From: Candidatus Bathyarchaeota archaeon | GTDB taxonomy: Archaea; Thermoproteota; Bathyarchaeia; 40CM-2-53-6 | Length of the DNA: 64,000 nucleotides | Direction: 5' to 3' | Assembly: GCA_005888755.1 (NCBI GenBank) | Contig: VBBQ01000026.1 | Coordinates: 20,434 to 84,433 of the forward strand | In this document: one piece after another, positions 38,898 to 61,891 of the stretch | How positions within the stretch are numbered: position 1 is the stretch's first letter | Layout: each line of letters begins with the position of its first letter | Translations under genes and position numbers: made by a program | Notes under the pieces: model-generated | Database searches by the model: none | What the model was told of the DNA's origin: nothing | What the model saw: only the letters and a program-made list of their open reading frames with translations

Positions 38898-39070
38898 TTC
38901 TCTTTCTGTACCTATTTTTCTTTTGTAGATTTTCTTTTCGCTAACGTTTGTCTAAGTATTGTTTTTCTAGTCACCCCCCCGTGGGTGGTCTATTTTTTCG
39001 CGTGCCGCGCCTTTCGTGGCCTGAGATTCGCGCGACAGGAAAACGACCATTATCAGCCCATATGTTCCAG
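38898..39070 (+). repeat. Dispersed intergenic repeat family, copy A
   Basis: TTTCGCTAAC...TTTTTCTAGTCACCCCCCCGTGGGTG...TTCGTGGCC...GAAAACGACCATTATCAGCCC; aligns with 45448-45575 and 50298-50445. Confidence 0.75.
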
Positions 39071-39337
39071 GAGAGAACGGATTAACCTACTATCAAGATA
39101 GCGTTAAATAACATTCAAGCGCAGACATAACCTACTATCGCTATGGCATGTGGGAGGTGAATGTTTCTGACCAGAACAAACAAGGGCAAAACCGGCGTCC
39201 TCGTGCTCCTATCCGCGAGCCTCGTCGTCTTCTCTCTCGGCTCCCTCTCAGCCTATCCCACGGCCGCCCAGGCTACGTGTAAAAGCGGGCGCGTCAAAAC
39301 TGTTCATCAAAGCTCGAGAGTCTCCAGACTAGCAAAG

Positions 39338-40119
39338 TTGAGAAATGGAAAGTCTTCTGTCGGAAGGCTAGAGATCATCGAATCCGTCATCAAGACATTG
39401 AAACCCTTGGACTATGTTCATGCATTCTGGGAAGGAGGAGCAGCGTCCTTCGGACGAGCTGATGAATGGTCCGACATTGACGCCTATTTGTTAGTTAACG
39501 ACTCGAAGGTCGCGGATGCTTTTCTCGCCGTCGAAAAGGCCCTCGAGTCGGTGTCTCCGATCAAGCAAAATACGTTGTAAGCCAGAACTCTTGGCCCGGC
39601 GTATCTCAAGCCTTCTACAGGCTCAGCGGAGCGAGCGAGTATCTCCTAGTCGACCTTGCAATACTGACGGAGTCTAGCCCGCAGAAGTTCCTAGAACCGG
39701 AAATACACGGAAGAGCAATCTTCCACCTCAATAAGACAGGTATGATCGAAGCGCCCAGACTGGACAAACACGGACTCGACGAAAGGGTGGAACAGAGATT
39801 GGGCGTGCTGAAGGAGAGGTTTGAAATCTTCAACAACTTCGTTCAGAAAGAAATGAACAGAGGAAACAGTCTCGAAGCACTAGAATACTACCGAACGATG
39901 GTGATCGCCTCTCTCGTTGAGGTTCTTCGAATCAAATACTATTCACCTCACTACGATTTTAGAATGCGATACATTAACCACGAACTGCCTCCGGAAATCG
40001 TCAAGAAGCTGGAAAATCTCTGTTTTGTCAGAGGAAAGGAAGAGCTCCAGAGAAAATACCTCGAAGCATTGCAATGGTTCAACAGAGCTATGGTTGAATC
40101 CAGCGCTTCGAAAGAGTAG
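39338..40119 (+). pseudogene. Nucleotidyltransferase-domain protein, frameshifted at A-run near 39567
   Basis: WEGGAASFGRADEWSDID (GS..D.D-like); continues in another frame YVVSQNSWPGVSQAFYRL...RYINHELP. Confidence 0.8.
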
Positions 40120-40256
40120 ACATCTATTTCTCGGCCTACCGAGGACGCTTGAATGTGCAGTCATTCGGGAATAAAGCTCCCGACGAGTATTATGAAGAAA
40201 CCGACCGATGAGTTTCTATTAGTACGCTGATCGGCAATTGTCCTGAGGAAAGAACC

Positions 40257-41165
40257 GTGAAGATTGGGCTGTTGGTCTTCATTGCGAACGACCGTGAAAC
40301 GTACCAGAGCCGTTCCTATGATACGATCCGCGCCGTCGCGCAACAGGCCGAGAAGGACGGTTTCGACAGTATCTGGCTACCTGACCATTTCCTCTACCGG
40401 AATCCAGGGGAGCCGACCCGCGGGATCTGGGAGTGCTGGACCATGCTGGCGGCGCTCGCCGAGGCAACACACCGCGTCGAGATCGGCACTCTCGTCACGT
40501 GCAATTCCTTCCGCAATCCCGCGATCCTAGCGAAAATGGCCACCACCGTTGACGAGGTAAGCCATGGCCGCTTGATACTAGGTATCGGGGCCGGATGGAA
40601 CGAACCGGAGTATCAGGCACTCGGATTGCCCTTCGACCATCGGGTAGGCCGCTTAGAGGAAGCCTTGCAGATAATCAAACCGTTACTCCGCGACGGCCAC
40701 GTCGATTTCTCGGGACAGTATTATCAAGCGCGAAACTGCGAGATCGCACCCCGCGGCCCGCGGCCCGAAGGACCGCCGCTGATGGTGGGATGCGAACAAA
40801 AAAGTCCACGCATGCTCAAGCTCACCGCAAAATACGCGGATCTCTGGAACACGGGGTACATGGGCAAGCCGGAAACAATAGCCGAGCCCTTCGCCAAAAT
40901 CGAAGACGCGTGCCGCAAAACCGGGCGCGATCCGAAAACGCTTGGAGTCACAGCGTTCATCGGCCTCTGGTTCCCTGACCTCCAAACAAAGAAACCCAAA
41001 TTCTTCGACAATCCACTGACAGGCTCGACGGAGGAGATCGCAGCAGCAATGCGCGGGTACGCAGAACTCAACGTGCAACACATCATGTTTCAGTGCGAGC
41101 CTTACGTGCCTCAAGCGATTCGGCGGCTGACCGAGGCACTCCGACTCTATCGGAGAACGGCTTGA
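40257..41165 (+). CDS. LLM-class flavin/F420-dependent oxidoreductase
   Basis: GFDSIWLPDH, RNPAILAKMATTVD, GIGAGWNEPEY. Confidence 0.93.
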   Translation: MKIGLLVFIANDRETYQSRSYDTIRAVAQQAEKDGFDSIWLPDHFLYRNPGEPTRGIWECWTMLAALAEATHRVEIGTLVTCNSFRNPAILAKMATTVDEVSHGRLILGIGAGWNEPEYQALGLPFDHRVGRLEEALQIIKPLLRDGHVDFSGQYYQARNCEIAPRGPRPEGPPLMVGCEQKSPRMLKLTAKYADLWNTGYMGKPETIAEPFAKIEDACRKTGRDPKTLGVTAFIGLWFPDLQTKKPKFFDNPLTGSTEEIAAAMRGYAELNVQHIMFQCEPYVPQAIRRLTEALRLYRRTA

Positions 41166-41382
41166 CCCTACGCCATTTCAACGTCTGTGGCGCCATCCCT
41201 CATCTTCCTAATCTCCATGGTGCTTTCGAAACCTACGCCCTCGGTCTTCCTCCTCGACGCGTCCATTCCAGCAGCTGAGGTCTCAGCGACCTGTCCTCGT
41301 GTCGCATGAGTCAGGATACCCAAGACTTTCGCAACTTTGTAAACCCGTAAGTTGAAATACTCTTAAGACCAAACATCACGCA

Positions 41383-42054
41383 ATGAGCATTCCACTCCTA
41401 GATCCACCGGCAGGCAACCCAACCTTCGGATCTACCAAGCGCGAAATCCTATTAATTCTCAAACGCGAAGGCCAGTCAGATCTCCAAACTCTCGCCGAAC
41501 ACTTACGAATCTCAAAAATGGCGGTTCACAAACACGCTCAGGAACTAGAAAAGAGGGGACTGATCGAACGCATACCGGTCCGAGGTACAACAGGCAGGCC
41601 CCGCCTCGCCCTGCGACTCGCCCCCAGCGCAACCTCACTCTTCCCAAGGGCCTACGCGGGAATAACATGCGCCGCCCTCGAATACATCGAGGAGAAGCTT
41701 GGACGAAAAGCTGTTGAAGAAGCTCTCCGTCGCCGACAAGCCGAAACACTCACCACCTACCGCGATCAGGTCAACGCAGAAACCCTCGCCCAACGTGTCC
41801 ACCAGCTCGCCGGACTCCGCGATCGCGAAGGATACATGGCCGAAGACCACCAATCAGGCCCCGCAAAGTTCGAGATCCTAGAGCACAATTGTCCGATACT
41901 CGCAGTTGCCGAGAACTACTGGGAGGCATGCACAGTCGAGAACGAACTGTTCCGAAAAGTATTGGATGCGAAAGTTGAGACAACACACCGTGTCGTTGCA
42001 GGCGGCAATGTCTGCCGTTTCCTAGTCACACCGAAACAGAGGACCCCTGGATGA
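41383..42054 (+). CDS. SufR-like HTH regulator with Cys motif
   Basis: N-terminal HTH (ISKMAVHKH, GRP); EHNCPI...EAC..E..LF...GGNVCRF. Confidence 0.82.
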   Translation: MSIPLLDPPAGNPTFGSTKREILLILKREGQSDLQTLAEHLRISKMAVHKHAQELEKRGLIERIPVRGTTGRPRLALRLAPSATSLFPRAYAGITCAALEYIEEKLGRKAVEEALRRRQAETLTTYRDQVNAETLAQRVHQLAGLRDREGYMAEDHQSGPAKFEILEHNCPILAVAENYWEACTVENELFRKVLDAKVETTHRVVAGGNVCRFLVTPKQRTPG

Positions 42055-42770
42055 AACGGGTCTCGCTAATCACTGGTGCTGGACGCGGCCTCGGCCGAAT
42101 ACTCGCCACATTCCTCGCAGGTCAAGGATGCGACATCGTCATAACAGCTCGAACCATCACAGAGCTTCACAACGTTTCTCAATCTCTCGAAAGCCTCGGC
42201 ACACGAGTCGCCGCAATTCCTGGTGACATCACAAACCCCGTACACAGGACTCGCTTGCTGCAACAAACGAGAGCCATGGGTGGCCTCAGCCTCCTCGTGA
42301 ACAACGCCTCTGATCTCGGGGAAACCCCACGTCCCGAACTCGCTCGAGCCTCTCTCACGCGATTCCGGACAACACTCGAAACAAACCTAGTCGCCCCACT
42401 CGCGCTCATACAAGAAGCACTCCCTCAACTCGAACAGATGAGGGGACTCGTAGTCAACATCTCCAGCGACGCAAGCCTGGGAGGTTACGAGCGATGGGGA
42501 ATCTACGGTTCAACCAAGGCTGCCCTCGACCTCGCCTCGAAGACTCTTTCAGCAGAACTCAAACCACGCCACATTTCCGTCGTGAGCGTCGACCCCGGTG
42601 ACATGCGGACCCGGATGCATCAGGACGCGTTTCCCGGCGAGAACATATCCGACCGCCCCCTCCCAGAAGTAACGCTTCCATTCTGGGCATGGCTCGTCAG
42701 CCAAGACCCCGAACGCATCACCGGGATGCGCTACCAGGCACAAGGAACACTCTGGGAGATCCCAGCTTGA
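42051..42770 (+). CDS. Short-chain dehydrogenase/reductase
   Basis: TGAGRGLG, NNAS, NISS, YGSTK, PGDMRT. Confidence 0.93.
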   Translation: MKRVSLITGAGRGLGRILATFLAGQGCDIVITARTITELHNVSQSLESLGTRVAAIPGDITNPVHRTRLLQQTRAMGGLSLLVNNASDLGETPRPELARASLTRFRTTLETNLVAPLALIQEALPQLEQMRGLVVNISSDASLGGYERWGIYGSTKAALDLASKTLSAELKPRHISVVSVDPGDMRTRMHQDAFPGENISDRPLPEVTLPFWAWLVSQDPERITGMRYQAQGTLWEIPA

Positions 42771-43807
42771 ACCGATCCGAACTCATGTTCGACCGTCCCA
42801 CCGATCTCTTCGCCAGCGCACCCCCGGAGATGCGTGGACATGACCGAGATGACATCCGCCTAATGGTCTCGACACCCGACGGCGATATACACTACACGTT
42901 CACTGATCTGCCTGGGCTCCTAGAACCTGGAGACATGCTAGTTGTCAACGAGAGCGCGACCTTGCCCGCAAGCCTCCCAGCCGCAAGCCGTCTAGGCAAC
43001 ATCAGACTCAACCTCTCAACACGATTTGCAGACGACCTCTGGCTCGCGGAACCAAGATGGAGTCCATCAAGGCCCGGCCCGCTACCCCTCAAGGAACACG
43101 AGATGATTCAGATCGGCGAGGCGAAAGCCCTCCTGCTCCAACAGTATCCTGGAATCCCGAGACTCTGGTTCGTCCGCCTAGACACTCCAGCTAGCTGTCT
43201 CATGGCCAAGTACGGCGAGCCCATTCACTACAATTACGCTCCCGCCTATCCCATGTCAAACTATCAAACCATCTTCTCCCGCTTCCCGGGAAGTGTCGAG
43301 ATGCCAAGTGCCGCACGGCCCATCACAGCACATGTCCGCGACATGCTTCGCTCACGTGGCATCGGCATTGTTGGAGTAATCCTTCACACCGGTGTCTCGA
43401 GCCTAGAGATTGAAGATGAAACAGTGGAGCACCAAGCTCTCTACCCAGAGGTCTTCCGGGTCCCCGAAGCAAGCGCAACCGCTGTCAACGCAACGCACGC
43501 CCGAGGCGGCCGCGTCATCGCCGTCGGAACCACAGTCGTCCGTGCTCTCGAAACCGCCTGGACACCAAACGGCCTTCGCGCCATCTCTGGAGCAACCGGC
43601 CTCTACATTCACCCCGGAAACAGCATCCATGCTATCGATGGACTCCTCACAGGATTGCATGATCCTGTAACGAGCCATCTTGCGATGCTCAGCGCGATCG
43701 CGGGCCTCGACCGGGTCAAGAAAGCATACGGTGAGGCCATCCGGAACCGGTACCTCTGGCATGAATTCGGCGACAGCCATCTACTGTGGCGACAGGACGC
43801 AAACTAA
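42767..43807 (+). CDS. QueA-like protein (divergent subfamily)
   Basis: GDMLVVNES, YQTIFS..PGSVEMPSAAR, IAVGTTVVRALET, YLWHEFGDSHL; TTG overlaps SDR stop. Confidence 0.85.
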   Translation: MNRSELMFDRPTDLFASAPPEMRGHDRDDIRLMVSTPDGDIHYTFTDLPGLLEPGDMLVVNESATLPASLPAASRLGNIRLNLSTRFADDLWLAEPRWSPSRPGPLPLKEHEMIQIGEAKALLLQQYPGIPRLWFVRLDTPASCLMAKYGEPIHYNYAPAYPMSNYQTIFSRFPGSVEMPSAARPITAHVRDMLRSRGIGIVGVILHTGVSSLEIEDETVEHQALYPEVFRVPEASATAVNATHARGGRVIAVGTTVVRALETAWTPNGLRAISGATGLYIHPGNSIHAIDGLLTGLHDPVTSHLAMLSAIAGLDRVKKAYGEAIRNRYLWHEFGDSHLLWRQDAN

Positions 43808-43904
43808 GAATTCTCTTTCTGTAACAATTTTCTCGTTTTTCATCTTTCCAGTGTTCCCTCGCGCCAATCTGAAAAGGAGCGGAAAACGTTCACAAGCCAT
43901 CTTT

Positions 43905-44540
43905 CTAGCGGAGCCGTTTGTCTTGTTCCTCCTCTAGAGAGGAGACTCGGACGTCATAGAGGAACTCGCGCAGCTCGTCTTCATGTTTCGGATCATCGGG
44001 TAGAGGCGACTCCTTCAGCGCTAAGTCTAGTTCATCGATGAATTTCGGGATATCCTTCGGCGAGGTCCCAGTTATGGGCCGATATTCGATGACGCCTTCG
44101 CGCAGTAGTTTGCAGCCCATTATGATTGTTCGTGCAATCGTGTTGCATCGTTTTGCGCTGTCGTCGCGTTCGCTGACGATATACTTTTCATAATTGTGCT
44201 CAGCAAGACCCTTTATGCTATGATAGGCTCTCTTACTGTAGTTCATCGCTGCAAGGCGGTGCAGCTCCGATAGACGGGACCAGTCTTTGACGACTATCGG
44301 ACTCATGACTCCACTCAGATAGTTCCAGTTGTTCCTCAAAACTTGATTTACTATGCGACCAAGCTCGTGATACTGTCTATCAGTTGGGCCGGAGTATTCA
44401 ACCCTAGATTGATCGTCAAACTCGCCGCGAAGGATCGACTTGGTTGGAGCGAGGACTGCAACGAAAAGGTCCAGGTCTGATCCTGGATGATTCATCTGCC
44501 ACATGTGCGATCCTACGTTCGTTACGAATAGTTCCTTCAT
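43905..44540 (-). CDS. Pol-beta superfamily nucleotidyltransferase (RlaP/YcgL-like)
   Basis: VGSHMWQMNHPGSDLDL (GS..SD.D), C-terminal LPDDP. Confidence 0.75.
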   Translation of the reverse strand: MKELFVTNVGSHMWQMNHPGSDLDLFVAVLAPTKSILRGEFDDQSRVEYSGPTDRQYHELGRIVNQVLRNNWNYLSGVMSPIVVKDWSRLSELHRLAAMNYSKRAYHSIKGLAEHNYEKYIVSERDDSAKRCNTIARTIIMGCKLLREGVIEYRPITGTSPKDIPKFIDELDLALKESPLPDDPKHEDELREFLYDVRVSSLEEEQDKRLR

Positions 44541-44572
44541 CTGGCTGGCACCAAAACAGGTAGGTAAATTAG

Positions 44573-45427
44573 GTATTTGAGAAGTTTTTCGACGGTGGGG
44601 AACAACTCATAAGCCAACCGAAACTCCCGCCGACCTTCGCGCCAGAAAATCGTCTCGAAGAACTGCTCGTTTCATTTGGTAAGAAGGGTCCAGCGGATTC
44701 ACAGTTCTACAGAGAGTTCCTGAATTCAGACGTGGTCACCCTCGGGAGGCTCGATTCTGGGTCGATGCTCAAGGAGGGTTTTCAACGGCTCGAAGCCACA
44801 ACGAAGTTTACCATGAGATTACTCGCGTTCAAGGGTGAGCCTGTTGTGGCTATCTATTCCTCAATCAAACGAATGACCGATGTGATTCCCGAAGAGTACT
44901 ATCGAGAGACGGGATACATCCAACTCAACTGCAAGATGTTGCTACAGACTGTAGTGTCCTGGGAAAGAAACACGAAACTCGCCTGAATCCTGGACATATG
45001 CTCGTCAAGACGTTCTCGCCTGAGGAGGTGAAAGCTCTCTTGGACGGAAGCATCTTGAAACAAATCGAAGAAGATTGGATTTCAGCCAGTCCAACAAATA
45101 TTCCCCTTCCGAAAGGCTCACAGGTGCTGGTGGGTCGGCCAAAGGTAACTCCAACAGGACTAATGGATAAGCTGGCGAACTGCTTTCAATCCAAAGGAGA
45201 TGTGGAACAAGCATGGGTTGGACAGATTTTCGTCCAGTCGTCGGGACAGCCTAGTGATATGTCTCAAGCTTTCGAAAAACTCTCGAAGAACATTTCAGCA
45301 GGTCTTGTTCAACCTCGGACCGACAATCCACTCAGTTCTCGGTGAGAAGGAACTCCTTGACATTCTTGACGCCACGGGGAAGGCTGAGGCGTGGATAAAC
45401 CGCCTCATTCCGTTCTTCCCGCGGTGA
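44573..45427 (+). pseudogene. SseB-family protein with two frameshifts (near 44983 and 45255)
   Basis: FAPENRLEELL...FYREFLNSDV...KLA/LNPGHMLVKTFSPEEV...GQP/LVICLKLS...LIPFFPR. Confidence 0.7.
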
Positions 45428-45447
45428 TTGCTACCGGCAGGAATCCC

Positions 45448-45575
45448 TATTGCTGACTATTTTCTAAGCATTCTTTTTTCTAGTGACCTCCCCGGGGACT
45501 TCGATTTTCCCCATCCACACTGTTCGCGGCCAGAGATAACGGACATGAAATCGCCGATTTTCGGCCCTGATTCAG
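45448..45575 (+). repeat. Dispersed intergenic repeat family, copy C
   Basis: GCTGACTATTTTCTAAGCATT..TTTTTCTAGTGACCTCCCCGGGGA..GATTTTCC..TTCGCGGCC..CATGAAATCGCCGATTTTCGGCCCTGAT. Confidence 0.75.
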
Positions 45576-45810
45576 GATCTGAACAGGCCTACTTCTAAAG
45601 TGGGATAATCCGCGCTGTAAACGCGAATAATTCCCGGCCGACCCAAGCCCAGACCATGCCCGGATTAGCCTGTCTCGCCCATTATCACCGCTAGACACGA
45701 AATGTTCCAGGAAAAATAGGGGGTATTAGCGACCGAGCTTCCCGTCGCGTGAGTGGACAGTCCGTACTTGCCACCGAGACTAAGCTGACGTGGATGTGCG
45801 ATGGATTCTT

Positions 45811-48800
45811 CTATGGTTTCCAGCCAATTGCTCTGAACTGCGACGTGCCAGTGGGAAAAGTCGTGAGTTTCGTTAGTGTTCCGTTGTTGTAGGTCAGTAT
45901 GGTGCCGCTTCCGCCCGCGATGTAAGCTGTGCCTGATGGGGACCAGCTGATACCGTAGAGCCAGCTCGAAGTTATAGTCGGAAGCATGGTCAATGTTGAC
46001 CCGTTGTAAGTGAGCACCATTCCGTTGTCACCGGCCAAAAGTGCGAGGGTGCCTGTTGGGTTGAAGGAGATCGCCCGGATAGCGGCGTTGGGTGAGATGA
46101 TGCTCGTGTTGATCGTGGCAACCTGTGTCCCATCGAACTGTAACAGCGTCCGGTTGAGCCCGCCTATCAAAGCGTACGCGCTATTCGGATTCCACGCCGC
46201 CGCGTCCAAGTCGAACGTTGTGCCGGTCGCGAACGAGCGGACTGTTGTCCCATCATATGTCAACGCCAACCCGACCTTGCCTATCAAGAGCGCATAACTA
46301 CCGCTCGGATTCCAGCTGATCGAAAGAATGGTTGATGACGTGTTAGGAATTGTCGTGACCGTGACGCCATCGTACTTGAACAGGATACCCGACGTGCCAC
46401 CTACCAGCGCAAAGGACCCGTCAGGCTTCCAGGAAACAGTCCAGAAATTGAACCCGGTCGAGATACCGGTTGACACAGTCGTAAGCGATGTTCCATCGTA
46501 CTTCAGAAGAACCGCAAAGTCTCCCGATATCAGCGCGTAGGACCCGTCAGGCTTCCAAGCAACCGACCGCAAGGCAGTCGTTACCGGCTGGCCAATCAGC
46601 GTCAGCGTGCCATTCGGGTAAAGCCTGGAAACCTTTCCGTCGTTGGTGACGACAAGAGCATAGGCCGATTGCGGAGACGCACCGACAACCGTTACAGTTT
46701 CGCTACCGCTACTGCCAAGGTGCGACGAATCTCCTGCATAGCTAGAGGTTATCGTGTGGAACCCGGTTATACTAGGCGTGTAGCTGACCGAGCAACTCGC
46801 AACACCAACGGTCCCTGAAGCTGTCAGTGAGCAGCTGGGCTGGGAGAATACGCCTGTCGAGTTCGAAGCGAAACTGACAGAACCGCTAGGAGTAACACTG
46901 CCTCCACTTGAGGAGTCGGTGATCGTAGCCGAACAATTGGAGGTCTGGTTTACAACAACCGGGCTAGTGCATACGACCACGCTTGAAGTAGTACGCTGAT
47001 TGATCATCACGTTCGCTCCGGCGCTGGTGCTCGCACTGTGAGCAGTGTCGCCGCCGTATCCGCCTGCGATTGTAGCAGTGCCTGATGCTGTTGCGGTGAA
47101 GGTAACAGAACAACTGCCCGAAACTAGAGCGCAGGTCGCGGAGCTGAAAGATCCCGGAGCTCCGGTCTCTGTGAAATTGATGCTACCCGACGGAGTGATC
47201 GTTGTTCCCGGTGACGTGTCAGAGACTGTCACAGTACAAGATGAAGCCTGGTTTACAAAAACTGGACTCGAACAGACCAAAGCTGTAGAAGTCGTCCGTG
47301 GGTCTACCGTGATACTTGCGGCCGCGCTAGTGCTCCCGCCATGCGACGAGTCGCCACCATACGTGCCAGTAACTAACGCATTGCCACTTGCAGCCGGAGT
47401 AAACGTGACCGAGCAGCTACCTGATGATAGAGAGCAAGAGGTCGAGCTGAACGAACCAGCAGGACCTGTCTCAGTGAACCTGACTATTCCCGTTGGAGTA
47501 GTTGAGCTGGCGTTAGTGTCTGTCACCGTCGCCGTGCACAATGATCCCTGGTTGACCAGAACTGGGCTGGCGCAGGTAACTGCCGTTGTTGTGTTATGAA
47601 GTGGCACAGTGGTCACAGTTACGCTGAACGCTGGACTCGTGCTAGCAGCATGAGCAGAGTCACCGCCGTACGCACCGGTGATCAGGGCGGAACCTGCTGC
47701 AGTAGGAGTGAAAATAACCGAGCAACTACCAGACACTAGAGTGCATGTAGTCGAGCTGAAAGAGCCGGCAGGACCAGTCTCGGCAAATGTGACAGTACCC
47801 GTCGGGGTGGTTGGGGAGATCGTCGATGTGTCACTCACCGTCGCGGTGCAAGTGGAAGCCTGGTTCACGATCACAGAGGAAGGAGAGCAATTAACAACGG
47901 TTGCAGTCGTGTGCTGGCCCACGTGAACCTGGACAACGACCAAGTGCAGTAGCGAGCCACTGGTCGCCTTGATCGTCACGTTGTAAACGCCTGAGGCCTG
48001 GTTAGACGGTACCTGAACGGAGAGAACTGAACTCTTCGTCCCGTTTACGGTGAGACTTGGATTGTTCGGGTTCAGAGTCGCTTTAGGTCCAGCAGGGCTC
48101 ACGGATACCGTGGTGGATATTCCTCCTTGGAATGTGTAGAGGCTCTGGAACAGGATCTGGGAGGTCCCCGAGGATCCTGGGGAGATATTCAAGGTAACAG
48201 GGTTGGCCGTCATGTTAAAGTCCGGCACTCGCACTGTCACATTCAACGCGTGGACCAGAGACCCGCTGGTCCCTGTCACGGTCGCAATGTAGATCCCGGT
48301 TGGCACCGTCTTGCTCGCAACGATTTTTAGATTGTCGTTGACCGTTTGGCCGACGTTCAACGTCACGGACGGGTTTTGCATCGAGACAGCCAATCCTTGG
48401 GGAGAGACAAAGGCCGTTAGAGCGACTGTTCCCTTGAATCCTCCAAGGCCTGTGACAGCAATCGCGGACTGGCTGTTCTGGCCCCGCTGAACCGTCAGAA
48501 GGTACGGCTTAGCAACGAGTTTGAAGTCGAACGTCGACACCGTGATACTGTTCGAGACAGAAGCGGTGTGACCCGCAGAATCACTTGTCGTCAGGGTAAC
48601 GGCATAGGATCCGCCTGCCGAATAGACATGAGTCACCGGGTTTCCTGTTGCCGAGCTTCCGTCTCCGAAAGTCCAGTTGAACATGTAGGGAGAAGAGCCT
48701 CCCGACGCCGTGCCAGTGAAAGTTACACTCTGGCCGGGAACGGGGGAAGACGGACTGAATGCAAAGCTGGTGGAGAGTGGATTGGTGGTGAAGAATTCGG

Positions 48801-50230: not shown

Positions 50231-50297
50231 TGACCCGAAAGTTACTGCTCAATCGGAAAAGTGGGCCTACAGCACAGGGTACCAAAAATTGAGATAG

Positions 50298-50445
50298 CAT
50301 TTCATTTCTGTAACTTTTCCTTTCGCTAACTATTCTTTTCTGCTAACTAATCTCTGCCCCCCCGGGGGCGGATTTTCCCGCCTCCCGCCCTTCGTGGCCG
50401 CCCAAATCGCCTTTGCATGAAATCACCCATTATCAGCCCTGATCA
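50298..50445 (+). repeat. Dispersed intergenic repeat family, copy B
   Basis: TTTCTGTAAC..TTTCGCTAAC..GCCCCCCCGGGGGCGGATTTTCC..TTCGTGGCC..CATGAAATCACCCATTATCAGCCCTGAT. Confidence 0.78.
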
Positions 50446-50704
50446 TGCATCTGGAAGATGGTCCCTATTTTGCCCTTGGATTCGTTCGTGATGGGTCCTA
50501 GCTTTCCCGTCTTTTCGCCTTTTCAGTTATGCCTGGATTGCGCCCTGAATCGGCAGAATCGCCGGCAATCGGTGCCTGACAACAAGTTAGCTCCGCGAAG
50601 AGGGAAGGGGGTATTGCACAGCGCACCTCGCGAGGCAAGAGTAGAGAGTTCGGACTGGTCACCGAAAGTAAGCTGACTCTCGTGGCACCAGTGCCCTGTT
50701 TGTT

Positions 50705-52372
50705 TTATTTTGTGGCGAAGGCGCGGAGTTTATCCTCAAAGATTGTCCGTGCTGGAAAGCCCATGCTGCACGCGTAAGTGTTGAAATCCAGCAGCTTCTT
50801 CCCGTTCCTCACAGCCTTATTCTGTATCTCTCGTATGCTCTCCCCTACTATGGCGTATGTGGACGCGTATCCTGGACCGTTTCCCTGGTGCGCTGGGAAG
50901 AGCTGGTGGTAGACCATGCTCTTTGACAAGCCTGTCTTCTTACTCGCCCATTCTATGAAATCCACAAGATCCTGTTTCCCAGAGTTAATCCTCGAATCAC
51001 CGATGATCCGGAGAAACCGTACAATACGCCACATCCACGTGTAGAACTCGTACTCCTCCGCAATAGCATCGAATCCACCGTGCTTCTCGTAGAAGTTCAC
51101 CAAGGCCTTCTCGTCAGAACTGAGACCCTTTCTCGTCTTCATCTTGTCCATCACATCCTGAAACTCAATCTCTCGCTGGAACGATATACCCTCAGAAATG
51201 GCCCCTCCGAGCGGCGACCACATCATGTCCACCAGCGACGGCTTCGCTCCATACGCAAATGATGAGTTGGACGCGTGAACACAGTGCCCATACTCCTCAT
51301 GAACCAGTAGATTGAGTAGCTCGCCTGGCGCCGTGCTCGGATCGCGACGCGGGTCCGTCGTACAGATGAACAACTGCTGCGGCTTGTTCGTCAGAGTATC
51401 AAAGAAGAACGCGCCGCCGCTCGGAAATATTGCCGTCAGATACGATGGTGTCTCGATCACCTTCGCATCATAGTGCGGATTCACTTTGACAATACTCTTG
51501 TTCGCAACCTTCACGACTATTTTTCGAAGTTGTGCGAGGTACGGTATGATCTCGTTTACCTTGACCGCTCTCTTGGCCTTGATCGCCTGGGACACTTTCT
51601 CCGCATTCGCAGAAACACCGTACTTCTTCGCCAGCCGAGCCGTCATCCGCTGGAACTTCGGGAGTTCTCGATCTAGATACTTGAGACCCTTCTCTTCAAG
51701 CTCGCCAGGCGTCTCTGAATAGTCCCAGAGACGTTGCAAGGCTTGAGCATAGATCTCTTTCCGGCCGAGATCCGCGCCCTCTCTTTTGATGATCTTGTAG
51801 ACCTCGTCAAAACCCTGGTTCTTGAAACCCTTCACCCGGAAAATCGAAGCATACTTCCTAGTCACCTGAGAAAGATCATCCAGCCCCTCCTTCAACTGCT
51901 TATCCGAAGTTTCTTTCTTGATAGTTCTAATTATCTCCTGGAGACCATCGCAACGTATCAACGTGAGCAAACGAAGTCCTGTAGGCCAGTTTCTACCCGC
52001 CGACTCAACCGTTGCTGTCTCTAGAGCCTTGATCCCGTTCCTGGTCAGCGCCTTCATGTGGCTGTCGATGATGCCTTCTTTGATCATGTAGCCAAAATAC
52101 GCGTTCAACACTGACTCGGGGACCATATGAGGCTCGACAAGACCCGCCCATGCGGCGGCCGACTCCAGGAACTTGAGCTGGGACTTGTTCTCAGCCTTCA
52201 GCCGAAGCTCGTCAACACGTCGCGAAAACTTCTCGAGATTCCTCTTCGAAGGAATGAATATTTTGCCGACATACTCGTTGAGCCCGTTGATGTAGGCTCC
52301 AGACGGATCGAACTCCTTGAACAGGTCAAAGATTTCCGATTCAACAGATGATGCAGGTTTCGGTATAGCCAA
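50705..52372 (-). CDS. DUF885-like zincin metallopeptidase
   Basis: VHEEYGH, downstream ISEG...E, PGYASTY. Confidence 0.7.
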   Translation of the reverse strand: MAIPKPASSVESEIFDLFKEFDPSGAYINGLNEYVGKIFIPSKRNLEKFSRRVDELRLKAENKSQLKFLESAAAWAGLVEPHMVPESVLNAYFGYMIKEGIIDSHMKALTRNGIKALETATVESAGRNWPTGLRLLTLIRCDGLQEIIRTIKKETSDKQLKEGLDDLSQVTRKYASIFRVKGFKNQGFDEVYKIIKREGADLGRKEIYAQALQRLWDYSETPGELEEKGLKYLDRELPKFQRMTARLAKKYGVSANAEKVSQAIKAKRAVKVNEIIPYLAQLRKIVVKVANKSIVKVNPHYDAKVIETPSYLTAIFPSGGAFFFDTLTNKPQQLFICTTDPRRDPSTAPGELLNLLVHEEYGHCVHASNSSFAYGAKPSLVDMMWSPLGGAISEGISFQREIEFQDVMDKMKTRKGLSSDEKALVNFYEKHGGFDAIAEEYEFYTWMWRIVRFLRIIGDSRINSGKQDLVDFIEWASKKTGLSKSMVYHQLFPAHQGNGPGYASTYAIVGESIREIQNKAVRNGKKLLDFNTYACSMGFPARTIFEDKLRAFATK

Positions 52373-53339: not shown

Positions 53340-53425
53340 ACAGTTATCGCGCCGAATCCGATCTCCATATAGAACGGGAACTCAGAGCTCTTAGGAATCG
53401 GAGAGGATACACGCGAGGAAGTGTC

Positions 53426-53581: not shown

Positions 53582-53634
53582 TCTCCCCGGCATCTTAAAT
53601 AAGAATAGAAATCAAATAACCTTGCGACCATCTT

Positions 53635-53997: not shown

Positions 53998-54001
53998 TTG
54001 G

Positions 54002-54802: not shown

Positions 54803-54821
54803 TTCTCTCTATCACATGTGT

Positions 54822-56099: not shown

Positions 56100-56139
56100 A
56101 AGTATTAATCAAGCTATTTCGAGATTGCCATGATCAGCT

Positions 56140-56409: not shown

Positions 56410-56499
56410 GAAGACCCAGATCGCTCCAGTTTTAGCCACTCACCTAGAAATTCAGATAAGCTAAATTGCAGCCGAACGGAGTTCATTTCGGTTAGTCAC

Positions 56500-57108
56500 T
56501 TGGCCTCTCTGGGCCTTGGCGGGCCTGTTGGTTTCTGCTTCGCCACCACAGGTTTCTGTAGCGCGCTCCTAGTGGCTCGTGTCTGGGAGTATGTTTCCCT
56601 TGAATCTTATCTCAGATGTGGCCTTTCTTGTCCAATTCGCTCGTCTGACGTGTTTCAACTACACCACTTCTACTATGGTCTGGCAATGCTCTTGCTCGCC
56701 ACTAGTTTTCTGGCGGTTACCAAGAGGCAGAGGGTAAGATGGGACGCGGCCTTGATGTTTGGAATAGGAGCAGGGCTTTGTATTGATGAGGCAGGCCTCT
56801 TGCTGTTGAGAGTCCCTTACAACGATCTGCTCTCAATTTTCTTACTGGCATTGTTTGGTTCGGCCATTTTCGGGGGAACCATTAACGCAGCTTTCCGGGA
56901 CGGGACACGCGAGTTCAGGATATTGGACCGAGCGGATATTCTAACCCTGTTGTCGATCCTTCTCGGTATGGCTGGAGTTCTCTATCTAGATCGGCCTCTG
57001 ATCACAATAGTAGAAATTGCTGGAGGTGTCTCTTGGGCCTTTGCTCTCGCTCTTGCCACCCTCTTCGGAAAGAAGCACTTTCTCAGGGTCTGGGCGAGAC
57101 CAGGCTAA
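56500..57108 (+). CDS. Hypothetical membrane protein
   Basis: HHFYYG and GAGLCIDE motifs, about 6 TM. Confidence 0.7.
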   Translation: MASLGLGGPVGFCFATTGFCSALLVARVWEYVSLESYLRCGLSCPIRSSDVFQLHHFYYGLAMLLLATSFLAVTKRQRVRWDAALMFGIGAGLCIDEAGLLLLRVPYNDLLSIFLLALFGSAIFGGTINAAFRDGTREFRILDRADILTLLSILLGMAGVLYLDRPLITIVEIAGGVSWAFALALATLFGKKHFLRVWARPG

Positions 57109-57157
57109 TCTAGCCGAATTATCTTCAGCGCATTGCTGTGTCGTGGCCGAACTGATT

Positions 57158-57551
57158 TCATTTTGAGGATTTCTTGGCTGGGCTCGATATCGCTAGGCGG
57201 TAGCCATCGGGGTCTGTGAAACGCGCTTCCCGTTCTCCCCAGGAATCCTTCGGTTTTTCGCTGAACTTTACTCCTCGCTTTCTTAGGGTTCGGTACCAGA
57301 AGTCAACGTTATCGACTTCAAACTCTATCCCGGCAGTTCGTTCCCCAATCCCAGGTCGACGACTCCCCCTTGGAAACGGGTGTAAGCCTATCTGAAGCCT
57401 GTTCGGGGTGATAAACGGCAACGTATTCGGGAGAAAAGTCGTACAGTAGATGGAAGCCCACTTTCCTGGTGTAGAAGTCCCTAGATCGTTGTACATCCTT
57501 CACTTGCAACAGCACCTGGTGCAAGCGTAACCCAGCCTTGCTACGGCGCAT
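57158..57551 (-). pseudogene. VOC/glyoxalase protein, +1 frameshift near 57413
   Basis: HQVLLQVKDVQRSRDFY...EYVAV/ITPNRLQIGLH...FEVDNVD...WGEREARFTDPDGY. Confidence 0.85.
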
Positions 57552-57689
57552 GACTTGCCACCTGCCCAACAAGTATTATGGATTTACACATTTCAGGTGA
57601 GTACGCAATTGACCGCAATTCTTGTTGTCCCCGTTAGGTAGCGCACAACCATAATCCCATCATCACCTGGTTGTCTCCTGGATCAGGAA

Positions 57690-58037
57690 CTAGGTCTTTT
57701 CAGGGGTCGTGAGGGCCGCTTCGTATCTCTTCCTAACGAAGGGCATAACGGATCTTACATCTCTAGGACCCTTCAACGGCGTTACCCAGAGCCTGCCTGT
57801 TTGACCGGTCATTTCGAATGGCTTCCCGCCGAATTTCGCCTTGACTTCTTTCTGGTCTTTTTCCGAGAGCTTCATCAGAACGACGCCGTTTGTTACGAGG
57901 AAACCGATAAATTTTCGATTGTAGAAGTAGCAGAGACAACCCATCATTGGTTTGGAGGTCACTCCTTTCCATGTCAGAACCTCCGCATCGAACGTCTTCT
58001 GAATATCGACCATCTTCTCTTCGTCATAATACTTCAT
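57690..58037 (-). CDS. TfoX/Sxy N-terminal-like protein
   Basis: VTSKPMMGCLCYFYNRKFIGFL. Confidence 0.65.
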   Translation of the reverse strand: MKYYDEEKMVDIQKTFDAEVLTWKGVTSKPMMGCLCYFYNRKFIGFLVTNGVVLMKLSEKDQKEVKAKFGGKPFEMTGQTGRLWVTPLKGPRDVRSVMPFVRKRYEAALTTPEKT

Positions 58038-58100
58038 GATTTCTGCCGGTTTTCAGATCGACCTTTAAAGCTCGTCTAGTCAAAGGCAGGTGTCAGAGCC

Positions 58101-58775
58101 TTGAGCCGGTTTCGAAGACCCCTACCGTCAAGTCCGGATGATGCTAGACTCCTAGAGGTGGCTAGTAGTCTCGGCCAGCAGCTCGATCTTCCAGGGCTCA
58201 ACCTCAGGGATATTCGATGGATGGAATGGATACCAGCCGGCCGCAGCACTCGCTCCGTACCTTCCGATTGGTGCATGTTTCTTCGTCATTCAATGATACT
58301 GCCGGCACGTATGATGGGGAAACTGACCGTCGAAGAATGGCGGCCCATAATCGCTTCCTCGCTCGTGTTCGAGAAGAAGATAAGACGGTCAATGAGGGGC
58401 ACCACGTTCCTGCTAACCGGGCTACCGCTGATAGTCTCTCTAGGAGGGACGATAACCGCTGCCATCCTCTTGCAAATGTCATGGATTATCTTCCTCTACC
58501 CTGTACTCCTCTTCCCGCTGGCAATTCTCGGGGGTAGGCGCTATAATGCCGACCTGAAGAGAGCAAGACTAGAAGCCGATTCTCAGACATCTTCTGTAAT
58601 AGGAAAGGACGCGCTGCTACAGGTTATGAAGAAGATCGACATGATGGGTCTTGACGACATTGACAGATTGAAAAGCGGGAGAGGCGGTCGTCGCCTTGCG
58701 AGTCTTCCGAGCATCACCGAGCGTATTGACAATCTTCAGGGACTATCTTCGCTCGCCAGCTTTTCTTCAATATGA
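58101..58775 (+). CDS. Membrane protein with M48-peptidase-like C-terminus, no HExxH
   Basis: 2 TM; LEADSQ...ALLQVMKKI...PSITERIDNL. Confidence 0.55.
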   Translation: MSRFRRPLPSSPDDARLLEVASSLGQQLDLPGLNLRDIRWMEWIPAGRSTRSVPSDWCMFLRHSMILPARMMGKLTVEEWRPIIASSLVFEKKIRRSMRGTTFLLTGLPLIVSLGGTITAAILLQMSWIIFLYPVLLFPLAILGGRRYNADLKRARLEADSQTSSVIGKDALLQVMKKIDMMGLDDIDRLKSGRGGRRLASLPSITERIDNLQGLSSLASFSSI

Positions 58776-58859
58776 GTTGATGGATTGCGTGCCTTCGCGG
58801 CTTTCTTGAAAAGTTCCACGAATCGGAGGGCCGCTTCGGCCTCGGGAGGAGCGGTCCTT

Positions 58860-59204
58860 CTAAGGAGTTTTAGGTTGGTTTTGGAATCGTTTGACAAGAC
58901 CGAACATTCCAAGGAACAGTGCTACTCCCGCTACAAGGTTCACGGCTGAACTGAGGATTGTCGTCGTGACTCCGACCGATTCTATGAGGGTGGAAATCTG
59001 ATCAGTAGGGAGCATGAGCTCGAAAAGGAGAGACACTACGTTTCTGACGGTTAGTAGAGCGAACGCGGCTATGATGAGAGTCCAGGCCCGGAATGACCCT
59101 GTTAGTTTTGTCACTCGGTAGGCGTAGAAGAACACACCCGCCTGCAGTATGAGTTCGACGACGCTGATGAAATAAAGAGTCGGAATTACAATAGGATCAA
59201 GCAT
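58860..59204 (-). CDS. Small 3-4 TM protein (putative sensor of KaiC module)
   Basis: Hydrophobic; 5 bp downstream of the KaiC-like gene. Confidence 0.7.
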   Translation of the reverse strand: MLDPIVIPTLYFISVVELILQAGVFFYAYRVTKLTGSFRAWTLIIAAFALLTVRNVVSLLFELMLPTDQISTLIESVGVTTTILSSAVNLVAGVALFLGMFGLVKRFQNQPKTP

Positions 59205-59209
59205 TCAAT

Positions 59210-60055
59210 CTACGCCTTCTTCTGTTTCTCTGAGGCTCCGCGGAACAGTTCCATGAACTTCTCTGATGCGACCTTTCTCGGCGAACCGCTGATGATTCCT
59301 TCGTAGTTTGAGAAGGCTGACTCTATCTTGATGCCTGCCGGTGTTATTTCGTATTCTCTAAACCTCTTGTCATGATCGCTTCCCCGCATTTTCAGAATCA
59401 CAAGGGCTTTGCGTAGCGATGACTCGATCTCTACGGGTTTGAGTGCGAGAATACAATCGACTAGGAAGCTGAGCCCTACATCGGTTACGCTGAAGGCTCC
59501 TCCGCTTATCTGAGGTGACTCCCACAGCAAAATGGAACTGACTCCATGGGTCTTGAGATACCTGACGATCCGGTAGGCTTCCATTCTCATGTCATCTCTC
59601 TTCACAAACATCTCTAGATGACTGAGCGAGTCGATGACGAGCCGTCGAGGCTGAATATCCCGAAGGACATCGTCCAGCAAACTACCGTCTCCGGACTCTA
59701 ACACGAGACTTGGGGATGTGCAGATTACGCGGAACTTGTCCTCCTCTTCCATTTTACGGAGGTCCCACCCGAAGTTCTTCGCATCCCTATAGATCTGGTC
59801 AGGGAGCTCTTCGAAGGTTACATAGATCCCAGGCTCTCCACGCTTCACTCCGTTGACAAGGTATTGCAGAGCCAGGGTTGTCTTTCCCGTGCCTGCGCTT
59901 CCCGCGAGCATGACAGCGTCACCCGGCATGAACCCTCCTCTAAGCATCTCGTCAAGCTCGACAATTCCAGTCTTTACCCGACCACCTTCCGCTATTCTAC
60001 TGGAAAACAATTGGTCGAACTCCGAGGATCCGGTCTTGGGTCGTGGTGTGCTCAT
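59210..60055 (-). CDS. Single-domain KaiC/RAD55-like RecA-superfamily ATPase
   Basis: GSAGTGKT, FEE, VIDSLS, LSFLVD, KMRGSDHD. Confidence 0.92.
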   Translation of the reverse strand: MSTPRPKTGSSEFDQLFSSRIAEGGRVKTGIVELDEMLRGGFMPGDAVMLAGSAGTGKTTLALQYLVNGVKRGEPGIYVTFEELPDQIYRDAKNFGWDLRKMEEEDKFRVICTSPSLVLESGDGSLLDDVLRDIQPRRLVIDSLSHLEMFVKRDDMRMEAYRIVRYLKTHGVSSILLWESPQISGGAFSVTDVGLSFLVDCILALKPVEIESSLRKALVILKMRGSDHDKRFREYEITPAGIKIESAFSNYEGIISGSPRKVASEKFMELFRGASEKQKKA

Positions 60056-60348
60056 TTCGCTACACCTATCTGGACTGTCTTGAGGTGGTTCGCCACCGAC
60101 TCTAGGATTTCACGGTCCCTTGCGCGGTCCAGGAACACGACTTCAGAGGCTCCAATCCTCTTTTGCTTTAGAAGCCCCAATTGCAGGAGTTCTCTGAGGT
60201 CGGAGATGACCGTGATGGTTGTTCTCCCGATTCTACGTGCTATTCCGTCGACTGTGTCAATAAGTCCCGGGTTCTTGTGGAAGAGGATGAGGAGGTCTCC
60301 TCTGACCTCTGACGCGAGCAGTGTCGAAAGGATTTCCCCGCCGCTCAT
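60052..60348 (-). CDS. Winged-helix protein in KaiC operon
   Basis: LLILFHKNPGLIDTVDGIARRIGR...LRELLQLG; overlapping stop/start. Confidence 0.75.
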   Translation of the reverse strand: MSGGEILSTLLASEVRGDLLILFHKNPGLIDTVDGIARRIGRTTITVISDLRELLQLGLLKQKRIGASEVVFLDRARDREILESVANHLKTVQIGVAK

Positions 60349-60839
60349 TTCGGCCTGCTCTCCACGAAACAGACTTCTTTCGCTGTTTCCAGCGACTTCT
60401 CATAGTCGAATCGGGCGTCCGAGTTGTAGGATATGCTCAGTTTTCGGTAGAGATCTTTGACGACGATCCTTTCGAGAACAGATGCCCCGTTACCGAATAG
60501 TGACTGTAATCCCCTGTCAAATTCCTTCGGGTTGTCCGAGTCGTCAAGCAACCCCTTCGACGCCAGAATATCAAGGACATAGCGGCCCAATGCGTTAGCA
60601 AGAGCATCGCAGACGATACCCGTGAGCAAAGACGAGAACGCTTCCTCCACTGCAGAATTCGATTTTGCGCCCGACTTCTGACCGGTCCAGAGATTACCGT
60701 GAGCATTAGCTGAACTGGACTCGCGCGTTCCCATTGCCATGCTCATCATGTTTTCACATTGCTGGCGTGATAGCTGAGACATGAACTGGTTGTAACCCCG
60801 GTTTCGATCTTCGTGGACAGGATTCTTCCAATCTTGCAC
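60345..60839 (-). CDS. DUF3227-like output-domain protein
   Basis: NPKEFDRGLQSLFGNGASVLERIVVKDLY; true start probably downstream of 60839. Confidence 0.65.
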   Translation of the reverse strand: MQDWKNPVHEDRNRGYNQFMSQLSRQQCENMMSMAMGTRESSSANAHGNLWTGQKSGAKSNSAVEEAFSSLLTGIVCDALANALGRYVLDILASKGLLDDSDNPKEFDRGLQSLFGNGASVLERIVVKDLYRKLSISYNSDARFDYEKSLETAKEVCFVESRPK

Positions 60840-60989
60840 TGGAGAGCCAGATTTTCGAGAGAATCAATCAGTCGAGACGTTCGCGCCTAAGGATTTCAGA
60901 AGGAGGCCGGCTTCGTTACACATATTATCTGATCGCTTCGCTATGACGGGTTACAATATCCGTATTCGATTGCCTTCGACTAGGGGCCG

Positions 60990-61463
60990 TTGGACGAGGA
61001 GGATCTTTTGCGGTCTTCTCTAGTGGAGAGTTTCTATGAGACTCTCGGGTACTGTTTCGGAAAAGTCCTACTGGAAACGCTGGGACCCAGAGTACAGGCA
61101 TCCGTATACGATCTCCTAGGACGGAGTGGAATCAAGAAGGAAGAGATTTCCAACAGGTTCGATGGCGTTGTGCAGGCGTTAACCAGCACCCTAGGAACCT
61201 CCTCCAGGGTCATAGTACACAGGACAGTTGTTGAGATGTTCAAGGAATATTCTCAGAGGCTTGACTTCTCGTATACTGACTCTCTGCGAGATCGTCTTGC
61301 ATTGTTGAAAGAGGCGGTTGTTGCAAACCATGTCCTCCCTCGAAGGTTACGTGAGGAAGGGACGTTCGACAGCGTGGAGAAGCCGGACTGGTCCGAGGGA
61401 AATGCCCTGAAAGGCCAAGCGTACAGCAGCCTCTATCCCATGAAAAAGGGCGTCAAGACATAG
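60990..61463 (+). CDS. Second DUF3227-like protein, divergent
   Basis: LLETLGPRVQASVYDLL...ISNRFDGVVQALTSTLG. Confidence 0.6.
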   Translation: MDEEDLLRSSLVESFYETLGYCFGKVLLETLGPRVQASVYDLLGRSGIKKEEISNRFDGVVQALTSTLGTSSRVIVHRTVVEMFKEYSQRLDFSYTDSLRDRLALLKEAVVANHVLPRRLREEGTFDSVEKPDWSEGNALKGQAYSSLYPMKKGVKT

Positions 61464-61544
61464 AAATCAACCTGACACTCTGTCGGTTGGGAAAGCGCTA
61501 GGCTAGACTAGACCCTCTTCCACCGAGTCCGACTTCTTGTATAG

Positions 61545-61578
61545 GACGAAAAAATCGCCCATTGTCAGCCCTGATTCC
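61545..61578 (+). repeat. Partial (3' core) copy of dispersed repeat
   Basis: GAAAAAATCGCCCATTGTCAGCCCTGATTC. Confidence 0.65.
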
Positions 61579-61891
61579 GAATCCAAGCCCACGATTTCTG
61601 GATCATGATTTTCCACGCTTATCCCATAGGGGAATATACGGGGAAAGAAAGAGGCATGACAAGCTGTCAATGAACCCGTGTCAGAGAAACAATCCCGAAA
61701 TCACAGCCAGACAGAAACGGTAGTCAGAAAAAATTGGATCCCTGCGCATCTCGCGTGCCATGAGCGGTCCCCCCCGGCGGGATGCTCCTGAAAGTATTCC
61801 AAGCACGAGATTCACAAGACGAAGACCGACAGGCGAAAAACACGCTTTTTGGAATCAGTCTAGGATCGAAACGCGAGACCCTTCTTGAGAT

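Follow-up and report, generated by a model that had tools for sequence, protein, structure and literature searches.

Among described repeats, the prokaryotic types known as MITE (miniature inverted-repeat transposable element), REP (repetitive extragenic palindromic sequence), BOX and SPRITE (a Rho-independent terminator-like element of Streptococcus pneumoniae) are the closest known kinds to the family that we report here (PMC10969869). This family was found in a stretch of 64,000 nucleotides (nt) from a Candidatus Bathyarchaeota archaeon (assembly GCA_005888755.1, contig VBBQ01000026.1, positions 20,434 to 84,433 of the forward strand), hereafter the window, and has two parts: an element of ~240-260 nt, E, and a module, U, that often stands directly 5' of it. 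IS200/IS605-derived elements (palindrome-associated transposable elements, PATEs) and the systems formed by REPs, their doublets (REPINs) and REP-associated tyrosine transposases (RAYTs) have neither inverted ends nor target duplications, insert strand-specifically with an orientation bias, and can sit beside or inside existing copies. BOX and bacterial interspersed mosaic elements (BIMEs) are not known to be strictly co-oriented. Bathyarchaeia are abundant and uncultured, their mobile DNA and genome organisation are almost unknown, and no description of repeats of such kind in them was found by full-text searches of the literature. The reading that we favour, giving it about an even chance, is that E and U constitute a modular, non-autonomous, strand-specific dispersed repeat family in which U is a terminator-like module.

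Bounds, lineage and dispersal of element E

An original prediction, made on the letters of the window, had described a ~150-bp intergenic repeat with a central dyad. Its three main copies are indeed related and lie on the + strand (~38891-39075, 45425-45582 and 50285-50454, with 67% mean column identity), and the announced order of parts, T-tracts with TTTCTGTAAC/GCTAAC, the dyad, GATTTTCC, TTCGYGGCC and a core GAAAWCRCCCATTRTCAGCCC, is present in the three of them. The bounds have to be redrawn. We lined up 39 loci of the Genome Taxonomy Database (GTDB) on a 22-nt core: upstream of it the T-tracts, the dyad, GATTTTCC and TTCGTGGCC are unconserved in most of these loci, and downstream the conservation is strong for ~240-260 nt, which defines E. 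The ~150-bp unit is thus a composite, in which module U is joined to no more than the initial ~30 nt of a longer element.

Exact matches to the 22-nt core pattern, ATCRCCCATTRTCAGCCCTGAT, number 39 in the species genomes of GTDB (596 Gb, two strands), against ~0.3 expected by chance according to our own estimate. All 39 are in metagenome-assembled genomes (MAGs) from soil labelled as Candidatus Bathyarchaeota/Bathyarchaeia or as Crenarchaeota 13_1_40CM; ~10 MAGs carry the core, with a maximum of 13 matches in one of them (BA_25). Soil metagenome contigs hold more than 117 further matches, a lower bound, with the same 5'-mid-3' order, in agreement with the expectation that additional copies would occur beyond the window. 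The exact-core sites, at least 158, cluster into at least 107 distinct sites. IMG/VR viral contigs gave 0 matches for two patterns, and with these a viral origin was rejected. The repeat family is lineage-specific to one group of uncultured soil Bathyarchaeia and has many copies per genome.

The left end of E is sharp (RRA|ATCGCCCATTATCAGCCCTGAT) and opens block B1, RRA|ATCGCCCATTATCAGCCCTGATCTCGAATCTGGGAG. In the 5' flank of 106 sites, position -1 is A in 104, position -2 is a purine in 104 and position -3 is a purine in 96, with no conservation beyond -3. A variable stretch, V1, separates B1 from block B2 (..AATCGTTCGGG), which is followed by another variable stretch and by CATCCAAGCCCGGATTGCGCCCTGAATC; in most copies of subtype A, 39-40 nt separate CCCTGAT from GTTCGGG. 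The CGCCCATTATC motif recurs ~130 nt into E, its second copy being CTCGCCCATTATCA..GCCAGACAG, and after it come a T/A-rich stretch and a G-run. The 3' block is GGGGGTCTTAGCGACC..CGCGACGCAAGAGTGG (or GGGGGTCTTAGCGAC..CGCGACGCAAGAGTGG), with a short tail that often ends ..TCCGGAC..GAAAGTAA. We named as sequence blocks within the repeat CGCCCATTATCAGCCCTGAT, GGGGGTCTTAGCGAC and the U block; the spacers of E are fast-changing in sequence and nearly fixed in length. Three subtypes, A, B and C, have B1 in common and differ in the next 60-150 nt. Three hidden Markov models (HMMs), built for the 5' (m5), middle (mid) and 3' (m3) parts of E, match in that order and at constant spacing in essentially every locus. 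The 3' limit comes from an indel at an orthologous site (loci are numbered with L), where L037 and L118 have a full E and L117 has only B1-V1-B2 (~75 nt), a remnant joined to the downstream flank that is common to L037 and L118.

Highly similar copies of E can have flanks that are unrelated; pairs of this kind come from one and the same genome (L009/L036, 88% identical; L041/L013, 84%) as well as from different genomes (L033/L034, 93%; L032/L010, 89%). Direct repeats are not visible at the boundaries of such pairs, whose 3' boundary is fuzzy, so that short duplications may be hidden there. E is intergenic and also forms head-to-tail dimers and trimers, in which the tail of a unit runs straight into the next RRA|ATCG. 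The orientation bias, which the original prediction had left to be tested, is strict: on 22 contigs with at least two arrays at least 500 nt apart, none of the 27 extra arrays is on the opposite strand. With respect to neighbouring open reading frames (ORFs) the orientation of E is mixed, the downstream gene being convergent in ~65% of cases by crude ORF calls.

Orthologous sites show turnover. They may carry different subtypes (L039/L045 and L028/L032), or different V1 segments together with an internal deletion (L070/L121). At the site upstream of a PhoU-domain gene (62033-63091), type C is present in the window and in L027, while L009 carries type A together with an incomplete C, and L029 carries U together with type A. 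Gene blocks adjoining U and E are translocated between a BA_25 contig and the window.

The same anatomy makes a rival explanation serious, because conservation lies in sequence blocks with fixed-length spacers and persists at diverged orthologous sites. E could be a polar DNA element selected by the host, that is, a cluster of protein-binding sites for replication, segregation or chromosome organisation, or an insulator, in spirit like the bacterial BIMEs that bind integration host factor or gyrase; we consider this unlikely. Its candidate sites would be the CGCCCATTATC motifs repeated in direct orientation and three palindromes, ATCAGnnCTGAT, TTCTAGAA and TCGCGA. The conservation in primary-sequence blocks and the 39-40 nt from CCCTGAT to GTTCGGG, rather than base pairing, suit such an element, as do local co-orientation that is strict whatever the orientation of the neighbouring genes, and the retention of E at intergenic sites that are orthologous between species with a coding-DNA identity of only 75-85%. 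GC skew is negative on the element strand in 25/34 loci, and the cumulative GC-skew maximum (~37 kb) has all the window copies to one side of it; however, the link to GC skew is confounded by gene orientation. Near-identical copies at non-orthologous places do not fit a host element, and the gain and loss of units, subtypes and halves from site to site is unexpected for a position-dependent function. The clustering of the copies, with all five sites gathered in 23 kb while the remaining 38 kb of the window is empty of them, also argues against it, and no candidate binding protein was identified.

Coding capacity, RNA structure and module U

Translation of 16 E copies in six frames left no frame open throughout, and a protein-coding reading was ruled out on this basis. 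The window contains no tRNA or tmRNA. Rfam gave no match at the gathering score for the whole window and none at E<=10 for 50380-50720, which holds the third copy, E3.

RNAalifold was run on MAFFT alignments of the whole E and of four sub-regions, on both strands. The energies were only marginal on either strand and the consensus nearly structureless, with a mean pairing probability of alignment-column pairs that is never >0.3; minimum free energy (MFE) z-scores against shuffles were ~0 in 11 of the 12 copies tested. Short dyads are present, ATCAGCCCTGAT in block B1 and CTGTCT..AGACAG around the second motif, and their covariation is not significant. Many single-sequence folds draw a B1-V1-B2 hairpin, the 3' half of B1 with B2, whose arms appeared compensatory by eye (CGAATCT/AGATTCG vs CGATTCT/AGAATCG). 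This hairpin was rejected by two tests: cognate arms pair no better than arms combined across copies (P=0.13 for the + strand and 0.74 for the - strand), and, in mutual information with average product correction over 77 dereplicated E copies, the top pairs are mostly non-Watson-Crick subfamily signals. A promoter-like AT-rich or TATA-like box at a fixed distance is absent from either flank of E, and as neither the sequence upstream of B1 nor that downstream of the tail has an AT peak, a promoter at these places was dropped.

A structured noncoding RNA (ncRNA) family was one of the readings of the original prediction. In this reading E would consist of ~250-nt ncRNA genes, or of RNA elements of 3' untranslated regions (UTRs), with the blocks read as RNA, perhaps by a protein partner, and the variable parts giving each copy its own function. 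The purine (RRA) 5' boundary of E is sharp and transcription-start-like, the U.G wobble of CCUGA/UCGGG would be possible on the + strand only, and the B1-B2 hairpin is frequent among single-sequence MFE structures. The three full window copies, moreover, lie 20-230 nt past the stop codons of convergent minus-strand genes, so a location in minus-strand 3' UTRs is possible. Against these points stand the missing Rfam match, the flat RNAalifold, z-score and cognate-arm results, the non-Watson-Crick nature of the mutual-information pairs, the lack of a TATA-like peak at a fixed distance and the mixed orientation to neighbouring genes, and we regard the ncRNA reading as distinctly improbable. E as a structured RNA is not supported; only the short GC dyad of U behaves in a hairpin-like manner.

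The prediction had also considered a cassette recombination site, in which the copies would be attC-like sites of an integron-like array. In its favour, the copies are co-oriented over a region with many small ORFs whose function is unknown, and the gene blocks that adjoin U and E are translocated. E, however, has no imperfect-palindrome architecture and no complementary arms, is longer (240-260 nt) than attC, and the sequences contain no RYYYAAC/GTTRRRY pair, i.e. no R''/R' boxes. Between the copies there are several genes on both strands, no integrase or other tyrosine recombinase was found by Pfam at 21-64 kb, and E is also single in many unrelated contexts. An integron-like site is essentially excluded.

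Module U, ~100-130 nt long, consists of T-rich GCTAAC repeats, a dyad, a T-run and CCCGCGCCCCGCCCTTCRTG. In the consensus of 27 distinct copies, TTTTTTCTGCTAACTAAATCATG is followed by the GACCCCCC/GGGGGGTC dyad, TGTTTTT and CCCGCGCCCCGCCCTTCRTGA. U often lies directly 5' of E, as in three window cases, in L007, L041 and L044 and in many metagenome loci; in a second class of arrangements ~63 nt separate U and E, and U is also found solitary (e.g. L009, L012 and L024). That the dyad arms vary together, as had been claimed for CACCC/GGGTG, TCCCC/GGGGA and GCCCCC/GGGGGC in the window, holds, since the dyad is kept with several complementary variants: it is retained in 26/26 distinct aligned copies from other contigs, with A-T, T-A, G-C and CA-TG as closing pairs.

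In these 26 aligned copies, downstream of a co-oriented gene, the GC-rich hairpin is directly followed by a T-run. A terminator-like scan flagged one window copy, 38970-38989 plus its T-run, and the dyad hairpins had no extra stability over shuffled sequence of equal composition (z from -1.8 to +1.2). The block 3' of the T-run is conserved at least as well as the hairpin, an observation for which a plain terminator does not account. In some copies a downstream CCCGCC block is the preferred partner of the G-run. At 50364-50385, for instance, the G-run can pair either with the upstream C-run or with the downstream CCCGC(G)CC, giving two mutually exclusive hairpins around the T-run, and the MFE of the 50345-50385 segment selects the pairing of the G-run with the downstream block. 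By analogy with SPRITE, U is most likely an intrinsic-terminator-like module for the upstream + strand gene.

Copies in the window and neighbouring sequence

All five window sites are on the + strand and span 23 kb. An HMM built from the three main copies recovers, in the 64-kb window, only those three and the core at 61552-61582. The 14-mer core CCCATTATCAGCCC has 12 window matches (4.4 expected) when <=3 mismatches are allowed; copies already listed by the original prediction make up the best four, and the fifth, at 45678-45691, is 130 nt 3' of the second copy.

The first site begins with a U copy at 38891-39020 (HMM match 38891-39038), with T-tracts containing TTTCTGTA/GCTAAC, the dyad CACCC..GGGTG at 38972-38987, a T-run and CGCGCCTTTCGTGG. 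It is followed at 39036-39075 by a 5' fragment of E (GGAAAACGACCATTATCAGCCC...) of only ~30-40 nt; the rest of E is missing, and the mid and 3' module HMMs have no match downstream of the fragment. An isolated 3'-module fragment of E (GAGGTCTCAGCGACCTGTCCTCGTGTCGCATGAGTC...TTTGTAAAC), identified by an m3 match at 41277-41311 and by comparison of tails, is at 41277-~41345.

The second U copy occupies 45425-45546 (HMM match 45425-45547) and contains TCCCC/GGGGA at 45489-45498, GATTTTC at 45503-45509, TGTTCGCGGCC and a variable spacer of ~20 nt. The adjoining E2, at 45547-45789, is of subtype B (m5 45547-45582, mid 45640-45707, m3 45718-45756) and reads in order B1 (GAA|ATCGCCGATTTTCGGCCCTGAT), mid, the 3' module GGGGGTATTAGCGACC..GTCGCGTGAGTGG and a tail ..CTAAGCTGAC. 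Its second CGCCCATTATC motif, at 45678-45691, is within the mid module, and so the 45674-45712 segment, once taken for a separate partial copy, is an internal part of E2. E2 is 80% identical to the copy of L045, in unrelated flanks, and includes a repeat of family D4 at 45718-45789.

The third U copy lies at 50285-50418 (HMM match 50285-50415), with GCCCCC/GGGGGC at 50356-50369, CCCGCCCTTCGTGG at 50384-50397, GATTTTCCC, a variable spacer and an exact match to CCCGCCCTTCGTG. E3, of subtype A, extends over 50419-50677 and maybe to ~50696 (m5 50419-50454, mid 50524-50589, m3 50605-50644), from GAA|ATCACCCATTATCAGCCCTGAT to GGGGGTATTGCACAGCGCACCTCGCGAGGCAAGAGTAG and a tail ..CCGAAAGTAAGCTGAC that is also present in L044; the D4 repeat is here at 50606-50677. 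Finally, E4, of subtype C, at 61551-~61806, opens with B1 as AAA|ATCGCCCATTGTCAGCCCTGAT, differs in its middle and finishes with ..GCCATGAGCGGTCCCCCCCGGCGGGATGCTCCTGAAAGTATTCC, and its orthologue in L027 is 90% identical, flanks included. The proposed partial copy at 61545-61578 corresponds to the start of this full element and the doubtful one at 61763-61788 to its tail. A further proposed partial copy, 43809-43840, turned out to be a T-rich tract after a stop codon, which the module-U HMM does not recover at E<=1.

The window is 90-97% identical to a BA_21 contig across 55-63 kb, and a RlaP-like flanking protein (43905-44540) is encoded on many soil metagenome contigs collinear with the window. 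The original prediction had described three of the ORFs before the copies as decayed. One case was checked, the SseB_C-like gene at 44765-45345, where a 1-nt deletion at ~44982 (CTCG-CCTG vs CTCGCCCTG in the sister strain, L002) splits a 193-aa gene into two ORFs; it may be either real decay or a homopolymer assembly error.

Other observations concern the surroundings of the copies. Between E4 and the start of the minus-strand gene with AbrB/MazE and PhoU domains (62033-63091) there is a 12-nt tandem array (CCGGTTTTGAAA, 4.7 copies) at 61892-61949, and L027, L029 and L009 have similar GAAAC/GTTTT arrays in the orthologous position; the window array probably serves this regulator as an operator. 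The cumulative GC skew peaks near 37 kb (36000-38000), and all repeat copies are to the right of the peak, with none in the first 38 kb. To the left of the copies, a segment of ~115 nt is duplicated at 33189-33303 and 36761-36875 (83-93% identity, 3.57 kb apart), each duplicate overlapping the start of a small ORF (repeat families D7, D8 and D10). A gene for a 1320-aa surface protein has at 46913-47868 a direct repeat with a period of ~300 nt, which corresponds to repeated Big_3_5 Ig-like domains. The junction TTCYAGRAAAATAGGGGGTC (45700-45730 and its equivalents in other E copies), with a short dyad, an A-run and a G-run, may bear a loose resemblance to archaeal origin recognition boxes with a G-string. 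About 236 nt (57709-57943) of the minus-strand ORF 57690-58037 have no counterpart in the BA_21 contig L027, otherwise 90-97% identical. Clean indels between near-identical soil contigs (L018 4804-4975 vs L089, 171 nt; L115 8979-9130 vs L063, 151 nt) involve sequence unrelated to U and E, and may be further small elements or deletions.

A possible route of dispersal and comparison with known repeats

Inverted-repeat searches of the three window copies gave only weak, inconsistent pairs, and no inverted ends in common emerged when U's left part was compared with the tails, in reverse complement, of 8 long-form copies; a U-to-tail terminal inverted repeat was discarded, as its 19-nt match is weak and restricted to one copy. 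The absence of terminal inverted repeats, as well as of a nearby transposase, had been noted in the original prediction and is borne out, for the transposase over 21-64 kb of the window and ~1 Mb of flanks. Proteins of the flanks group into clusters of orthologues and ordinary paralogues, such as surface proteins, a small membrane protein and ABC transporters; one cluster has, as judged by eye, AAA-type and Lon-protease-like motifs. An element-associated gene was consequently dropped as a candidate. In ~1 Mb of flanks there was no Y1 transposase, TnpB or RAYT.

Of the original suggestions, a non-autonomous mobile element is the best supported, by the copies in unrelated flanks, the sharp 5' end and the gain and loss of units, with different bounds and a modular build that had not been foreseen. 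From these observations we infer transposition, the class of enzyme and a terminator activity of U, as follows. An enzyme acting in trans, of which none was found here, would place copies of E at new intergenic sites and in a single orientation. The copies would then be reshaped by mutual recombination or gene conversion, with loss of modules, swaps of subtype and gain or loss of units. U would often travel with E and act in a terminator-like way on the upstream + strand gene. Since there are no inverted ends or visible duplications, and the copies are co-oriented and form head-to-tail dimers, a strand-specific route (single-strand/HUH-type or site-specific) is suggested instead of DDE cut-and-paste. 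In this sense, the sharp 5' end, the tandem units and the strict co-orientation make the family resemble single-strand, HUH or site-specific elements more than MITEs of the DDE type. Membership in the IS200/IS605-derived group is not established, given that support for hairpins is missing, that RRA is all there is of a target and that the search for a partner gene found none.

Several points weigh against a mobile, terminator-bearing family. In the window, Pfam applied to the ORFs of 21-64 kb detected no transposase, integrase, tyrosine recombinase or other recombinase, and clustering of the proteins from ~1 Mb of flanks (ORFs >=120 aa) detected no recurrent transposase, integrase or other element-linked gene. 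An autonomous version, in which the end modules would enclose an ORF, is absent from all 156 loci (L007-L162) and from the window, the modules being ~200 nt apart. The apparent target, RRA at -3 to -1, is very degenerate, with no specific left-end target of 4-5 nt, and end hairpins of the IS200/IS605 type have no covariation support. Between near-identical contigs there is no presence or absence of a whole element; only partial deletions and turnover between species are seen, so that recent mobility is hypothetical. The identity between copies, 93% at best and ~70% in the median, makes the E family an old one. The long blocks that stay conserved where orthologous sites have diverged might be due to selection for a host function and not to selfish spread. 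As for U, its terminator function is putative, its hairpin z-scores are weak, and archaeal termination needs only T-runs.

We also put forward, as a tentative proposal with a small chance of being right, that E is a new, strictly polar archaeal genome element. It would be either a strand-specific non-autonomous transposon that lacks terminal inverted repeats and depends on an unrecognised enzyme of Bathyarchaeia, or an architecture element of repeated protein-binding blocks oriented by replication or segregation. In both versions U could add a two-state switch around the T-run (C-run/G-run vs G-run/CCCGCGCC). Whatever its nature, the repeat family may be a useful handle on the rearrangement of Bathyarchaeia genomes and a case in which strand-specific transposition or polar DNA motifs could be tested in archaea; because many contigs end in or near the repeat, it may also be a marker for strain typing and for assembly break-points in soil metagenomes. 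Should U terminate transcription, it would exemplify for archaea a terminator that is dispersed as a repeat.

Like MITEs, including SM1-SM4 of Sulfolobus, E is short, multicopy and intergenic, has no ORF, comprises subfamilies and truncated derivatives, and presumably depends on an enzyme in trans (PMC10969869). Unlike them, E has no terminal inverted repeats, no visible target-site duplication and no related autonomous insertion sequence that could be found, is strictly co-oriented per contig, and consists of old copies. With PATEs and REP/REPIN-RAYT it has in common the lack of inverted ends and of visible duplications, the orientation bias and the ability to adjoin or enter other copies; it differs in that the subterminal hairpins that define those elements are without covariation support here, in a 5' target that is only RRA, and in the absence of their Y1, TnpB or RAYT partners from the ~1 Mb of flanks. 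The pneumococcal BOX (boxA-boxB-boxC) and the BIMEs of E. coli are similar to E/U in having ordered, separable modules that are lost or repeated, in being intergenic and in having no known dedicated transposase, whereas E/U is unrelated in sequence, belongs to the archaeal domain and has an E that is not palindromic. U, for its part, is like the pneumococcal SPRITE a dispersed repeat with a GC hairpin and then a T-run after the 3' ends of genes, and is set apart from it by the better-conserved block after the T-run, CCCGCGCCCCGCCCTTCRTG, by the T-rich GCTAAC repeats that precede the hairpin, and by the alternative pairing of its G-run with the downstream block.

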